A stretch of 47,731 nt of DNA. Source: Escherichia phage JulesPiccard. Position 1 is the first letter of the stretch; the number at the start of each line of letters is the position of its first letter. Shown piece after piece: positions 5,643 to 46,894 of the stretch. Position numbers and translations under genes: made by a program. The stretch lies in the sequence record MZ501087. The stretch is one strand, 5' to 3'. The notes under the pieces are model-generated. The model made no database searches and had not been told where the DNA came from. It saw only the letters and a program-made list of their open reading frames with translations.

Positions 5643-5867
5643 ATGATAAAAATATTTTCTGGTGACTTCGAGTTCGCACATGAGGCTGATGCATTCCTTA
5701 ATGATGCAATTTCCTCAGGATTCAAATATCTAGTCAGGTCGCTGAGCAAATCACCAATGATTCAGGCCTATAGTCGCAGCGATACAACTCCAGGAAAAGG
5801 GGTTATAAGAAAGGATGGAGTGAGAGTTTTGGGAGTGGCCCTATCTGACGACCCTAGATGTGGATAA
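5643..5867 (+). CDS. hypothetical protein
   Basis: 74-aa ORF between terminators in head module. Confidence 0.35.
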   Translation: MIKIFSGDFEFAHEADAFLNDAISSGFKYLVRSLSKSPMIQAYSRSDTTPGKGVIRKDGVRVLGVALSDDPRCG

Positions 5868-5963
5868 CTGGTTGATGAATTTTCTGTTTTTAAGTCAGCG
5901 GAGTATGAGGAGTATACTCATGAGATTGATGGTGTATGGGTTAACTATATCCACAATGACTTC

Positions 5964-6185
5964 GTGAGTAAATTAAATGATGGTTGGAGAACGGTTACAG
6001 ACAGCGCATCCCCGCTAACCCACCACCCTCAGGTGTTGACGTGGTCATGGGAGTACAACTACTATTACACAAGATCATCATCAACTTATGGTATTTGCTT
6101 TTTAGCTAGGTTTGCAAATCATGATTCAACTAAAAAATCTGGCTGGGCCTTAGTTAAGTACGAAGAGGTAGAAGCGCCACAGTAA
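5964..6185 (+). CDS. hypothetical protein
   Basis: 73-aa ORF followed by terminator hairpin at 6190. Confidence 0.35.
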   Translation: MSKLNDGWRTVTDSASPLTHHPQVLTWSWEYNYYYTRSSSTYGICFLARFANHDSTKKSGWALVKYEEVEAPQ

Positions 6186-22339: not shown

Positions 22340-22640
22340 GTAACTCGATGTATACAATCTCATCCGCGAAAAATGATATACGCCCTGTTACGCCAATTTA
22401 CGCATTAGTTACATTAAAATATCTATATATATCAACCTTTTACTCTTATTATTATTATTATATATATTACTGTGTATATCATGTAACTACTTCTATAGAG
22501 CGTTCCGGTTATAATTTTAATATCATGTGGATTTATACAGTATTGCGCGGTAGCTATAACAATGCACCATCAGCGATAAACGGTATACACGATATACACA
22601 CTAGTTACATTGAGCTATAGCTGGGCTGAGGTGCTAAAAG
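22340..22640. repeat. AT-rich control-region repeat, copy 1 (contains (TTA)5 at 22446..22460)
   Basis: shares ATATCTATATATATCAACCTTTTA-(TTA)n-TATA core and TACATTGAGCTATAGCTGGGG tail with 39745..40060. Confidence 0.6.
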
Positions 22641-22978
22641 CCGTAACCAATGGCAATGCCTACACGCAATTACAAAGATTCACGCGTAAGTTTGAATCAA
22701 CGATTGGCAAAACCAATTGGACTGGCTACGGTGCCGAATATATAGTTAAATCATCGAAAGCAATCAACCAGAGAGATACAGAAATGACCTACTACATTAT
22801 CAAAGAGAAAAACAACGCACTTTTCGGCGATTGCTATTTTGGTGGCCCTGCTGGATACACCACAAATAAGAGCGAAGCTGACCGATTCGAGACCAAAGAA
22901 GAAGCCCGAGATGTGCTGACCGGGTACTTCACTGAAGAAGATTTGAAGTCTGTTAAAGTGGTTAAGATCAAGGGGTGA
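22610..22978 (+). CDS. hypothetical protein (start uncertain, TTG/GTG)
   Basis: 122-aa ORF heading the recombination operon; no in-frame ATG near 5' end. Confidence 0.4.
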   Translation: MSYSWAEVLKAVTNGNAYTQLQRFTRKFESTIGKTNWTGYGAEYIVKSSKAINQRDTEMTYYIIKEKNNALFGDCYFGGPAGYTTNKSEADRFETKEEARDVLTGYFTEEDLKSVKVVKIKG

Positions 22979-22981
22979 GTT

Positions 22982-23947
22982 ATGAGCTTTAAGGTTTTTA
23001 CGCGAGAGGAGCTAAGTAACGAGGCCTATCACGCTGAGACTGAACACATCTCCGGTAGCTCGCTTGTTGAGATTATCCAGGGCTCACCAGCTAAGTGGAA
23101 GTTCAAGCAACGAAATAATGATAGCAAGGCGCTTAAGTTTGGAACCTTAAGCCACACTATGATTTTGGAACAAGATGTATTCGATAAAGAATACCTTCGC
23201 GCAACAGACCTTGATGCAATCGAGGGATTAATTACAAGCCAGGCTGGATTGTCGGCAGCGCTTAAAAAAGTTGGTGTAGCTGGAGCGTCTGGGAAAGGAT
23301 ATGTCGAACTCATAGAGATGATGTATCGATCTGGTGAGGATTGGCCTGTTAAGTGGCTAATTGAGCAGCAGGAGAGCGCACAGGCGCTTGTGGAGGGTAA
23401 GGAGCTTGTTAGCGCAGCGGACTACGATAAAGTTATGGCAATGCGTGAAGTTCTTTGCAATATTCCTGCTTACGATAAGATTGTTAACAGTGAAACGGCG
23501 CAGAAAGAGTTATCAATATTTGGTGAGATTCTCGGGGTTGGCGTGAAGATTCGAATTGACCATGTTGACGTTGTTGATGGCGTAGTTCGCATCACAGATT
23601 ACAAAACGACAGCAGACGCAAGCCCTGAAGGATTTGGTAAGTCGGCATTCTCACACGGATACCTTGCAAAAATGACCCTTCAGAGAGATCTGTTTGTGAA
23701 GGCGTTTAACGAGAAGCGCAAGGTTGTCGTGGGATTGCTAGCGCAGGAGAAGGTAGAGCCATATCTCCCAATGCTTTACACCTTAACGGATGAGCAACTT
23801 CGAATCGGCCGCTTGCAGTACCTTGAGGCGCTAGCCACTTATAAGAAGTGCAAGGAGCTTGATATTTGGCCTGGCTACTCGAATGGCATTACAGAGCAAG
23901 AGCTATTGGTTCCTGAGTGGGCTCTAAAACAATACAAAGAAATCTAA
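22982..23947 (+). CDS. PD-(D/E)xK family exonuclease (recombination exonuclease)
   Basis: RIDHVDVVDGVVRITDYKTTA motif; adjacent to annealing protein and SSB. Confidence 0.65.
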   Translation: MSFKVFTREELSNEAYHAETEHISGSSLVEIIQGSPAKWKFKQRNNDSKALKFGTLSHTMILEQDVFDKEYLRATDLDAIEGLITSQAGLSAALKKVGVAGASGKGYVELIEMMYRSGEDWPVKWLIEQQESAQALVEGKELVSAADYDKVMAMREVLCNIPAYDKIVNSETAQKELSIFGEILGVGVKIRIDHVDVVDGVVRITDYKTTADASPEGFGKSAFSHGYLAKMTLQRDLFVKAFNEKRKVVVGLLAQEKVEPYLPMLYTLTDEQLRIGRLQYLEALATYKKCKELDIWPGYSNGITEQELLVPEWALKQYKEI

Positions 23948-36258: not shown

Positions 36259-37842
36259 TCACCCCAGCAATCGTGGATTAATGTAAACTTTATCACCAAT
36301 CAGGCACGTGTAGTTTTTCTCATCAAGCATTGGCAGCAGGTGATCTTTAATCTTAGTCATCACTCCAGCCTGAGCTTCGAATGGTTTGACCTTACGAGCA
36401 GCTTCATATAGAGAACGAACGCCTACTACGCCTTTCCCGTTCCTGCCTTGTTTAATCAGAATATCAATCAGCTTATTCATCTCGGCATTGTCTCCAGCGT
36501 GACCAGCGGCGTTGGCAGATGACAGATAAGTCTTGCTAAGTTCCTGGAACATAATTACAGCCTCCTGCATTGTGTCCAACTCAATCTCCCTGGACTTCTG
36601 TGGACTCCCGCCGTTAGGGTTGAACCAGTTGCGAATAGTGTGAAGAACCGCAGCGATTCTGATAGCCTGCTTATCGAACTTGCCTAACGCACCGCGCAAC
36701 ATTGTGTGTGAATACTTCCCGCCGTCCGCGAGGTGAGGCTCCATTTCCTGACGCGCTCGGTTGAGATATTTCATTGCTGAGTTGCTCACTGTCAACTTAA
36801 CATCTTGCTCATTCATGATTTCGTGAACCAGTCGGAAGTAATCAGCCTTTAGTCCACCATCAATTGGCTCGTATGTTGATTCACCATTTTCATCAACGAA
36901 TACACGCTCGCCCAGGAATGACTTTTCACGTACAAGCAGGAAACGTTCCGACACACCAATACCACGCGCACCAGCATTCATGATCGCGTTTATTGTTTCA
37001 TCCTGCGCAATTACTGAGATGCAACCCATAGCAAAGAAACTCATGTTGTTCTCTGCATTCGCGCGAGCGATAGATACGTGCCCACCATCCCATGCTTTAA
37101 GAACAAGTTCGCTGTTCGTTTTCTTAGAGCCATCACCATAGGTCATGCCAAGCAGTGAGTTAACACTCGTTGCCTCATCCGAGATAACCGCGAAGTTACC
37201 CTGGCGGTTGTTTATTCGTGCCAGGCCTTCAGGTGTGGTGTCTGATACCGGGAATACGATATCGCACAACTTCTCCAGTTTTTCCTCTAGCTCCTCCTTT
37301 TCCTCAAATAGGGAGGCCATCTCTGAAGGAGATTTTTCCTGCTTCATCTCTTTGGATAATGCGGATAGTTTTGCCATAATCTTTTTGCGCTCACGCTTGC
37401 GAACTTCATTCAGTCGCTCGGTCTCAGCAATCATTGGAGCAATCGAAAGTGAGTTGATGGCTGATTTACCAGTTGATGGCGGCTGACTGGTCACGACGTA
37501 AAGCGAAGTCGGTTGCTGAGTTCCATGATACTCGACAGTAAAGCGGCCCAGCATCGCAGCAGAAATACACCCCAGGAAGTGCATATAGGCTGAAGACTCT
37601 GGGAACTGAACGGAGCGGGCAATGTTGGCAGAAAGTTTACCAACAACATCAATATCATTACCGAGTGAGATTACGGGGTACTTGTCATTAGCGGAATCAA
37701 TCTCTACGGGCGCCTTCCAGAACGATTGAGACTGTCGATAGCCATTGGCATTAATAGCGACTCGCAGGGGTGGGAGGTTGTCTGCGGCAGCAATTGCCAT
37801 AACCTGTTCAACAGATAGCTTATCTTCGTTGAAATCAAACAT
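36259..37842 (-). CDS. large hypothetical protein (Walker-A-like STGKS motif)
   Basis: 527 aa; QPPSTGKSA; own promoter element on minus strand at 37873..37915; N- and C-termini duplicated in 40684..41223. Confidence 0.55.
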   Translation of the reverse strand: MFDFNEDKLSVEQVMAIAAADNLPPLRVAINANGYRQSQSFWKAPVEIDSANDKYPVISLGNDIDVVGKLSANIARSVQFPESSAYMHFLGCISAAMLGRFTVEYHGTQQPTSLYVVTSQPPSTGKSAINSLSIAPMIAETERLNEVRKRERKKIMAKLSALSKEMKQEKSPSEMASLFEEKEELEEKLEKLCDIVFPVSDTTPEGLARINNRQGNFAVISDEATSVNSLLGMTYGDGSKKTNSELVLKAWDGGHVSIARANAENNMSFFAMGCISVIAQDETINAIMNAGARGIGVSERFLLVREKSFLGERVFVDENGESTYEPIDGGLKADYFRLVHEIMNEQDVKLTVSNSAMKYLNRARQEMEPHLADGGKYSHTMLRGALGKFDKQAIRIAAVLHTIRNWFNPNGGSPQKSREIELDTMQEAVIMFQELSKTYLSSANAAGHAGDNAEMNKLIDILIKQGRNGKGVVGVRSLYEAARKVKPFEAQAGVMTKIKDHLLPMLDEKNYTCLIGDKVYINPRLLG

Positions 37843-40162: not shown

Positions 40163-40684
40163 ATGTCGAATCGAATTCAGCCAGTAAGCCTTGGTGATGT
40201 TATCCGCTACATGGCCAAGCAGGCACTTAAGACTGACAACCGAACTTTTCATGTCCCAATCCATCTTATAGCTCGCCAGGTGTACGGACTAACGTCTGAT
40301 GATATGGGCCGAATCAGCACTGAAGATCTCGAGACTGGTGGCAAATACAGCTTGGCAAAGTTGAAAGCGTCATATGTCTCTAACACAGTTGCAAGGATGC
40401 CGGAGATTCAGGAGGCGAACGTTCGGGCCAAGCTATCAATCAAGGACGGAGACTTCGGGGATGATGTTGATGTTCGATGCGCATACATCACCTTGGTAGA
40501 TGGGGCAATTCAGAAAGGAAAGAGAGTGAAGGCCAACAACCAGGTTGCAGAGAAGGCGGTGAACGACTTTAAGGATAGAATCCTCAAGCTAATGCCATCC
40601 GTGACTGAGTTTGAAGGAGGCGAGATCACTGGAGCCATTAAGGCAATTAAGATGTACCAGGAAATGATTAAGGAGACAAAATAA
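40163..40684 (+). CDS. hypothetical protein
   Basis: RBS AGGAG; sigma70-like promoter TTGATA-N16-TATTAT upstream. Confidence 0.5.
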   Translation: MSNRIQPVSLGDVIRYMAKQALKTDNRTFHVPIHLIARQVYGLTSDDMGRISTEDLETGGKYSLAKLKASYVSNTVARMPEIQEANVRAKLSIKDGDFGDDVDVRCAYITLVDGAIQKGKRVKANNQVAEKAVNDFKDRILKLMPSVTEFEGGEITGAIKAIKMYQEMIKETK

Positions 40685-41223
40685 TGGGGATGTTTGATTT
40701 TACCGAAGAGAAGCTGACAGATGAGCAGATTATGCAGATTGCTGCGCGGGATGGACTTCCTCCGCTACGAGTTGCAATCAATGCCAATGGATATCGCCAG
40801 TCTCAATCATTCTGGTGTAGTGTTGAGGAGTTGCTCTGCGCAAAGCTCGACAGCAAGTCGGGCGTAGTTGTGCTAAAAATTCACGACCAGAGCAGGAACG
40901 GTAAAGGGGTTGTAGGAATTAGATCAACATATGAAGCGCTGAGAAAGGTCAAGCCATTTGCCGGACTCAACGGAGTCATGCATGACCTGAAAAATAACAT
41001 CCTGCCATCGCTACAGGACGTAGGAATCATCTGCCTCATTGGAGATAAAATTTACGTGCATCCATACATCATTGGCATGCATGCGATAGAAGTTGAAGAG
41101 TGGTGCGACCCATGTCCTGCTGTTGAGCAAGATACTAGACTACCATACCACTTGCGTTATAGTGAGGAAGAGGTGGAGATGGCGATGGACTTGTATCGTA
41201 GATGGAATGCTGTTGGGAAATGA
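40684..41223 (+). CDS. truncated paralog of the 527-aa protein (N- and C-terminal segments only)
   Basis: N-terminus MFDFTEEKLTDEQIMQIAARDGLPPLRVAINANGYRQSQSFW and C-terminus RNGKGVVGIRSTYEALRKVKPF..CLIGDKIYV match ends of 36259..37842. Confidence 0.55.
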   Translation: MGMFDFTEEKLTDEQIMQIAARDGLPPLRVAINANGYRQSQSFWCSVEELLCAKLDSKSGVVVLKIHDQSRNGKGVVGIRSTYEALRKVKPFAGLNGVMHDLKNNILPSLQDVGIICLIGDKIYVHPYIIGMHAIEVEEWCDPCPAVEQDTRLPYHLRYSEEEVEMAMDLYRRWNAVGK

Positions 41224-41310: not shown

Positions 41311-41520
41311 ATGAAGATGGAAAATATTCGTATTGAAGATGTTTACGTTGACCAGGCTGAGGTCAGCATCACAAAAAGAGATCGTGGTGCCGTTGTATCT
41401 CTGGATTTCGACCCTGATGAATACGGAGATTGTCAGACGCTGATGCAATACAGTCCAGACCAGGCGCGCAAGCTGGCGGCGGCATTAATTCTGGCGGCTG
41501 ATGAGGCAGAGAAGCAATGA
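41311..41520 (+). CDS. hypothetical small protein (paralog pair member)
   Basis: C-terminus ARKLAAALILAADEAEKQ resembles next gene. Confidence 0.45.
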   Translation: MKMENIRIEDVYVDQAEVSITKRDRGAVVSLDFDPDEYGDCQTLMQYSPDQARKLAAALILAADEAEKQ

Positions 41521-41631: not shown

Positions 41632-41817
41632 ATGAGCAACGGAATCATTATAAAATCTGGCGACAGGATTCTTATTGAGGCGCGCAGAAATGTCGTTGAA
41701 CTTGAAACAGAAAATGACTATGCGTTCATGACTCCAGAGCAGGCGCTTGAACTTGCAGCCGCCCTTGTATCTGCGGCGAATGAAGCCAACAACCAGCTCG
41801 GGAGCGCCCAGGCATGA
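41632..41817 (+). CDS. hypothetical small protein (paralog pair member)
   Basis: C-terminus ALELAAALVSAANEANNQ; RBS AGAGGTG. Confidence 0.45.
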   Translation: MSNGIIIKSGDRILIEARRNVVELETENDYAFMTPEQALELAAALVSAANEANNQLGSAQA

Positions 41818-42038
41818 AGAAGCATCGCATTGTGATGATCAGGACTGAGACGGCGTTCGGCGATCCGTGTCACAGTACTGTCGATGCGTTCGTGAGTGAG
41901 CTTGCGGCTGGTCCAGGGAAAACCGTCCAAGATGACAAATACGGCGTCGCAGATGAATTGACGAAGAAAAGCAAATTCACTTTCGGTAGCAATTTCGGTG
42001 AAGGCAAAGCGCTTACCATGTCAACTGCGAAAATGTAG
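41814..42038 (+). CDS. hypothetical protein, ends at in-frame TAG
   Basis: 74 aa; same frame as downstream Met-less ORF. Confidence 0.4.
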   Translation: MKKHRIVMIRTETAFGDPCHSTVDAFVSELAAGPGKTVQDDKYGVADELTKKSKFTFGSNFGEGKALTMSTAKM

Positions 42039-42077
42039 CCACGAATCGGCGGTTACGGATATGTCAATCGTCACATA

Positions 42078-42377
42078 TTGGCGGTTAGCGAATGCGAATC
42101 GGCACGCGATCGCAAGGTGGCTGTTTGCTATTGCGTTGGTGGCAATGAGTTCATCAATGGTTGCGAATGCGAGTATGAAGTTGATGAGCGCGAGGCGGGG
42201 TGTGAGCCGCGCATTATTCATATCGTACAAGATGCATTCGTCTCTGACTTAAAAGGTGATCACCGCTGGGAATCTGTTAAGTTTGGAAAGCTTAACATTG
42301 ATGGAAAAGATCTTGGCGATGCATACGCAATCATAAATCCTGATGGCGGCGTAGTGGCTCAGTTCTACATCAAATAG
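42078..42377 (+). CDS. Cys-rich hypothetical protein (no ATG; TTG start or readthrough product)
   Basis: open frame from 42039 with no Met; CYC..C.C motifs; stop TAG forms promoter element 42375. Confidence 0.35.
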   Translation: MAVSECESARDRKVAVCYCVGGNEFINGCECEYEVDEREAGCEPRIIHIVQDAFVSDLKGDHRWESVKFGKLNIDGKDLGDAYAIINPDGGVVAQFYIK

Positions 42378-42417
42378 CACGATTTGTTAAAAGGGGATTC
42401 ATCCTGACTGGTATAAT
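42375..42417 (+). promoter_or_regulatory. conserved promoter/operator element
   Basis: TAGCACGATTTGTTAAA-N22-TATAAT. Confidence 0.55.
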
Positions 42418-42450
42418 CCCCACATCAACCACACGAATGGAAGTTAACAA

Positions 42451-46816: not shown

Positions 46817-46894
46817 GCTCTGCTAGCTCAATTGGATAGCAGCAACGACCTTCTAAGTCGTAGGTTACTGGTTCGAATCCAGTGCGGAGCGCCA
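46817..46894 (+). tRNA. tRNA-Arg (anticodon UCU), CCA encoded
   Basis: 7-bp acceptor stem GCTCTGC/GCGGAGC (one G-U), anticodon stem ACGAC/GTCGT with loop CTTCTAA, T-arm ACTGG-TTCGAAT-CCAGT, D-loop with GG, 3' GCCA; D-stem has only 3 pairs. Confidence 0.75.

Follow-up and report, generated by a model that had tools for sequence, protein, structure and literature searches.

An in-frame TAG at 42036..42038 in the genome of Escherichia phage JulesPiccard is probably a genuine nonsense mutation, private to this lineage, which splits one continuous, non-essential accessory gene. The window, the whole deposited stretch of 47,731 nucleotides (MZ501087), was analyzed, and all positions refer to it unless another record is named. 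In the BASEL collection, this T1-like phage of the Drexlerviridae is named Bas03. Its backbone is ~85% identical to those of JeanPiccard, AugustePiccard, and RobRod40.

The interrupted locus

The disrupted gene lies on the plus strand at 41814..42377. It is a short-N-terminus allele of an orphan family of T1-like phages and has 187 codons including the TAG. Its upstream half (41814..42038, plus strand) is a 74-aa ORF that runs from ATG 41814 to the TAG and contains a GDPCHS motif and the middle module of the family. The ATG overlaps the stop codon of an upstream 61-aa ORF as ATGA. A Shine-Dalgarno (SD) sequence, GGGAG, is present at 41800-41804, with a duplex energy of -6.6 kcal/mol that falls in the top 5% of the background. 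Past the TAG, the same frame stays open from 42039 to another TAG at 42375-42377. This downstream frame (42039..42377, plus strand) consists of 112 codons plus the stop and encodes the Cys-rich C-terminal module, with six Cys residues and no Met. The first in-frame ATG, GTG, or TTG after the TAG is a TTG at 42078..42080, the first conventional start candidate, which lies 39 nt past the TAG and would give 99 aa. A conceptual fusion across the TAG has 187 aa (74 + 1 + 112). An earlier note on this DNA had described the same 74-aa ORF, Met-free Cys-rich continuation, and TTG, together with a fusion of roughly 187 aa. The sequence confirmed all of these features with their coordinates, as well as the arithmetic of the fusion.

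In GenBank, the two halves are annotated as two hypothetical proteins, bas03_0068 (74 aa, QXV81895.1) and bas03_0069 (86 aa, QXV81896.1). The latter starts at a GTG at 42117..42119 on the plus strand. An exhaustive profile search returned database proteins identical to both, P0130 for the 74-aa ORF and P0126 (86 aa) for the frame from GTG 42117. The genome contains more than 50 same-frame open pairs split by one stop, and the bare pattern is therefore unremarkable. The pair at TAG 42036 is meaningful because both of its halves align over their whole length with homologs that are single, unbroken proteins.

Other features were observed around the locus. The upstream 61-aa ORF (41632-41817) and a 69-aa ORF next to it (41311-41520) are paralogs with 38% identity. 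They share a C-terminal P(D/E)QA..LAAAL..AA.EA pattern and have a weak DUF6907/phrog_13316 match. Further upstream, a 179-aa ORF (40684-41223) matched the N-terminal 51 aa (71%) and the C-terminal 63 aa (57%) of the RobRod40 DNA helicase in a tblastn search. It resembles a helicase that has lost its core; its RobRod40 counterpart is CDS0067, and the helicase gene of JulesPiccard itself is at 36262-37842 on the minus strand. On the other side, the intergenic segment before the PNK gene (42385-42450, TTGTTAAAAGGGGATTCATCCTGACTGGTATAATCCCCAC...) has hardly changed between phages that otherwise diverge, and many Braunvirinae genomes match the locus in this segment only (query positions ~862-948). 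Its sequence resembles a conserved promoter (TTGTTA...TATAAT), and a promoter is annotated there in ETEP102.

Homologs, modules, and the glutamate column

Nucleotide homology to Nouzillyvirus genomes (ESCO41, CJ19, p111, P817, GaoY1-9D, and others) ran from 41859 through the TAG into the PNK gene. In these genomes, the region is one CDS of 233-268 aa. This homology has its left breakpoint at the GDPCHS motif (41859 on the plus strand; query position 360 in megablast), which marks a mosaic junction. With tblastn, the gene was found in 14 of 50,697 phage records, in each as one uninterrupted piece. A search of 5.8 billion proteins gave 133 matches, and in 119 of the 120 listed, the alignment spanned the TAG position and took in at least 91% of the query. 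Residues 16-187 of JulesPiccard aligned continuously with uninterrupted homologs at 60-85% identity. The length of the family is normally 240-270 aa.

At the TAG column, the 120 listed homologs had Glu (87), a gap (33), and nothing else. The TAG thus stands in place of an invariant Glu codon of the family. This codon was GAA in 10 of the 11 segment-bearing DNAs checked and GAG in one (50EP); the presence of GAG in 50EP indicates that a one-step G-to-T path from GAG to TAG exists. None of the 87 listed homologs with the segment had a stop there. The exact 74-aa and 86-aa products were found in JulesPiccard only, as clusters of one member from one contig, and a contig search gave no contig encoding the exact 74-aa or 99-aa ORF. 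No other TAG-bearing copy was found with a strict DNA pattern in viral, metagenome, and genome collections, a scan of low power, as its Glu-codon control met only one family member per collection. A looser DNA pattern for copies with TAG, TAA, or TGA gave four matches, all by chance.

A nonsense mutation was one of three options that the earlier note had proposed, and a comparison with homologs was one of its suggestions for checking them. The comparison supported this option: the relatives carry one continuous gene, the Glu at the TAG column is invariant among them, and the stop is private to JulesPiccard. The absence of Met after the TAG is a family property of an internal region of the protein.

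The family is modular. In profile positions, it has an N-terminal coiled-coil (1-90), a KYNGDPCHS motif with the middle module (95-155), and the Cys-rich C-terminal module (175-268). These modules recur in other combinations. The C-terminal module occurs as a stand-alone protein (P0115, which was found in two samples, and P0127), and fusions without the middle module also occur (P0123, P0125, and P0116). The natural stand-alone forms have ATG starts and N-terminal extensions of their own. In P0125, which is from another phage, a homolog of the 69-aa ORF is fused in frame to a KYNGEPCHS motif and the C-terminal module, indicating module shuffling at the locus.

A segment of 20 residues in the family, TAKM-E-PRSGGYGYxNRHVWA, is missing in RobRod40, XT34, and PH1062, and in about 33 of the 120 listed homologs. 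In JulesPiccard, it corresponds to 20 codons at 42024..42083 on the plus strand, which read TAKM*PRIGGYGYVNRHILA and lie between the middle and C-terminal modules. Judged from this indel and from the module combinations, the TAG sits in an optional linker between shuffled modules. Pfam, PHROGs, and PDB sequence searches with the orphan family gave nothing significant. The closest intact homolog was modeled using AlphaFold2 with a 71-sequence alignment; the model was unusable (pLDDT 48.7, pTM 0.23).

Constraint and other interrupted genes

No second stop or frameshift was found in the 112 codons after the TAG. The pairwise dN/dS (Nei-Gojobori) downstream of the TAG was 0.11-0.27 for JulesPiccard vs. 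its homologs, and the median among intact homologs was 0.20. The low dN/dS and the lack of a further lesion indicate that most of the divergence predates the stop. The undecayed downstream frame fits a recent mutation, and it fits continued expression equally well. Two private changes of JulesPiccard, Y119C and A154S, are at residues invariant in the 120 listed homologs, and both are downstream of the TAG. In changes at strictly invariant residues, the JulesPiccard allele is among the top 3 of 121. Y119C and A154S hint weakly at relaxed constraint.

The family includes two further alleles that are independently interrupted. In ETEP102 (OR979723.1, 213-1019), the TCG codon of Ser53 has become TAG, and the rest of the 268-codon frame is intact. 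This allele is annotated as two CDSs, ETEP102_10 (52 aa) and ETEP102_11 (188 aa). The larger piece has the UniRef label "SCP domain-containing protein", which was not reproduced by a Pfam scan. In the Logan contig ERR13714806_14770 (22-843), the TGG codon of Trp31 has become TGA at 112-114, the rest of the frame is intact, and the protein was called from the next Met (P0029, 238 aa). Both alleles resemble that of JulesPiccard in having one premature in-frame stop in an otherwise intact gene of the same family, but their stops are in the N-terminal coiled-coil region, not in the linker. Three premature stops at different positions, one of them a TGA, indicate that the interruptions are neither amber-specific nor position-specific.

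JeanPiccard, AugustePiccard, Msk, and A110b, the closest among the backbone relatives listed, are not among the 14 gene-carrying records. The rarity of the gene, its absence from the closest relatives, the two other interrupted alleles, and the plaques formed by JulesPiccard on MG1655 deltaRM all indicate that the gene is dispensable. Three independent premature stops in one family could also be selected loss-of-function events. Recurrent knock-out might be selected if the gene were costly or toxic on K-12 or sensed by host defence, or alternatively the two pieces might form a working protein via reinitiation; we consider this pair of possibilities unlikely. Literature searches gave nothing relevant on nonsense or escape mutants in Drexlerviridae.

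We also compared the 80 annotated proteins of RobRod40 with JulesPiccard, and 71 of them had a match. Among these, an internal TAG was found in the present gene only. A premature TAA was found at 5865-5867, in a 181-aa head-module accessory gene (5643-6185) with an upstream terminator and an SD sequence of its own. Here a GAA (Glu) codon has become TAA, changing PRCGELVDEF to PRCG*LVDEF, and no SD-bearing restart codon was found after it. Uninterrupted versions of the gene occur in RobRod40 (CDS0007, 91% aa identity) and P0121 (98%). The 48-kb contig of P0121 was considered as a close relative of JulesPiccard and rejected, as it is only 80-90% identical and stops short of the locus. Besides the two Glu-to-stop changes, stops were found in only two doubtful low-complexity RobRod40 ORFs, and one RobRod40 gene (23070-23300) aligned in two pieces, a possible frameshift.

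Two short RobRod40 "CDSs", one a low-complexity poly-Tyr ORF and the other of 31 aa, match the stretch 22348-22784 in alignments that pass through stop codons. Neither phage is likely to have these genes; the conserved DNA may have a regulatory role or pertain to the other strand. An annotation-free, six-frame ORF comparison with RobRod40, Msk, and A110b was too noisy and was discarded, as noncoding frames give spurious "interrupted ORFs". We did not read a G-to-T mutational signature into the stops, because G:C-to-T:A is a common route to stop codons and n = 4.

Translation at the TAG and competing explanations

Programmed or suppressor-mediated UAG read-through would give the 187-aa protein at useful levels. 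The same frame does run on into a conserved module, and the dispensable linker would probably accept Gln or another residue at this position. In E. coli, weak termination has been reported for UAG when the next base is C. In JulesPiccard, however, TAG is a normal terminator that ends 13 of 85 mechanically chosen ORFs, and 8 of the other 12 TAG terminators, including the gene's own terminal TAG, carry the same +4 C as TAG 42036. The predicted RNA structure around the TAG was no better than that of shuffled sequences (z = 0.29). Programmed read-through, another option of the earlier note, is not supported: the stop is unconserved, the +4 C is commonplace, and neither a stimulatory RNA structure nor any other readthrough-promoting context, which the note had suggested looking for, was found downstream. 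A suppressor tRNA with a CUA anticodon was not found in JulesPiccard either, as ARAGORN detected only a tRNA-Arg(TCT). Relatives, among them RobRod40 and the vB_EcoS-12xxx series, share this tRNA gene (46817-46894). By its genotype, MG1655 is not known to carry an amber suppressor. E. coli K-12 MG1655 deltaRM was the host for isolating the BASEL phages and for at least three rounds of plaque purification (PMC8594841). Suppression by this host is unexpected, and the suppressor-host explanation was rejected. The other premature stops include TAA and TGA, which again speaks against an amber-specific process. Qbeta A1 (UGA) and retroviral gag-pol (UAG) also have an in-frame stop between the parts of a potential fusion, but those stops are conserved and have a stimulatory context, whereas that of JulesPiccard is unique and has no special context. 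The TAG-recoded crAss-like and Lak phages likewise have in-frame TAGs inside their genes; in contrast to them, JulesPiccard lacks a suppressor tRNA, uses TAG as a normal terminator, and has one gene affected. Read-through at useful levels is very improbable. A gene-60-like bypass would have its take-off at Met74/UAG and its landing downstream, with part of the linker skipped. In its favor, the stop comes directly after the putative take-off codon, and the residues skipped would fall in a segment that is naturally absent in 33 of the 120 listed homologs. The sole nearby downstream ATG (42061-63), however, is in a different frame, which has no homology, so a hop of this type would not restore the conserved frame. 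No stable stem-loop was found, and the segment is translated as conserved protein sequence in homologs. Such a bypass can hardly be true. Of the three recoding mechanisms, programmed read-through, TAG reassignment, and bypassing, none passed the defining tests that were run.

The two halves might instead form a functional split gene, in which reinitiation at TTG 42078, ATC 42045, or GTG 42117 yields a separate C-terminal module. The in-frame start candidates after the TAG are ATC (+6 nt), ATA (+36), TTG (+39), and GTG (+78). SD-independent termination-reinitiation is known from lacI and rIIB amber mutants, and TTG 42078 is within the range documented for it in E. coli. As in the lacI restart proteins and T4 rIIB, an in-frame UUG (as well as near-cognate AUC and AUA) lies no more than ~40 nt past the UAG and lacks an SD sequence; a restart in JulesPiccard would be an analogy to those systems only. 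The position of the TAG, in a 20-aa segment missing from 33 of the 120 listed homologs and at a boundary of independently shuffled modules, would suit a split, as would the intact downstream frame with its low dN/dS and the stand-alone C-module genes with their own starts in other phages (P0115 and P0127). The SD duplex energies argue against it. They were +0.6 kcal/mol for TTG 42078, a value equalled or bettered by 90% of random NTG triplets, and -1.7 kcal/mol for GTG 42117, whereas the median of real plus-strand starts in JulesPiccard was -5.8 kcal/mol. De novo initiation at either codon is thus unlikely, and the non-canonical start that the earlier note had proposed lost its support for lack of SD pairing. 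The TTG is a W-to-L variant that is also present in seven intact homologs, e.g., TH27, indicating that it did not arise as compensation to restore the C-terminal part. A protein from GTG 42117 would miss the beginning of the conserved C-terminal module; the GTG start given to bas03_0069 probably reflects an artefact of gene calling. The natural stand-alone forms, moreover, use ATG and their own N-terminal extensions, and two invariant C-module residues are altered in the JulesPiccard allele. We give the split gene a small chance of being right. A sequencing or assembly error, with GAG as the true codon and the gene intact, would account for a stop unique to one deposited genome and for a second Glu-to-stop change of the same G-to-T type in the same assembly. 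G-to-T is a known oxidative library artefact. Artefactual G-to-T changes are of low frequency per read, however, and should lose in the consensus. Beyond the two stops, the 71 RobRod40-matched proteins showed only the stops in doubtful ORFs and the one gene in two pieces. BASEL genomes were sequenced on an Illumina NextSeq, typically at 50-100x, and ambiguities were settled by Sanger sequencing (PMC8594841). At this coverage and with Sanger sequencing, a consensus substitution error is unlikely, and we regard an error as quite improbable.

We therefore favor a nonsense mutation, and we infer both the outcome of translation at the TAG and the relative recency of the mutation. A Glu codon would have changed to TAG in the JulesPiccard lineage, most simply from GAG by a single G-to-T change. 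Translation from ATG 41814 would end at the TAG, with a 74-aa fragment as the product. The Cys-rich C-terminal module would not be made, or would be made in trace amounts only, by basal leak-through or SD-independent reinitiation. Such a low-level restart or leak-through product is possible, though unsupported. The phage would tolerate the loss because the gene is dispensable on the laboratory host. The allele resembles spontaneous or laboratory amber mutations in non-essential phage genes: one sense codon has changed to TAG, the frame is otherwise intact and conserved, the change is private to one isolate and tolerated on a non-suppressing host, and the gene is annotated as two small ORFs. 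It differs from them in that its TAG was not selected as conditional-lethal, the gene is an orphan, and the stop is in a naturally optional linker.

The finding is an ordinary one and reveals no new recoding mechanism. It corrects the annotation, as bas03_0068 and bas03_0069 are halves of one disrupted gene, not two genes. For users of the BASEL collection, Bas03 is a natural knock-out of this accessory gene and probably also of the gene at 5643-6185. These knock-outs could matter where Bas03 differs from its relatives in defence-system screens.
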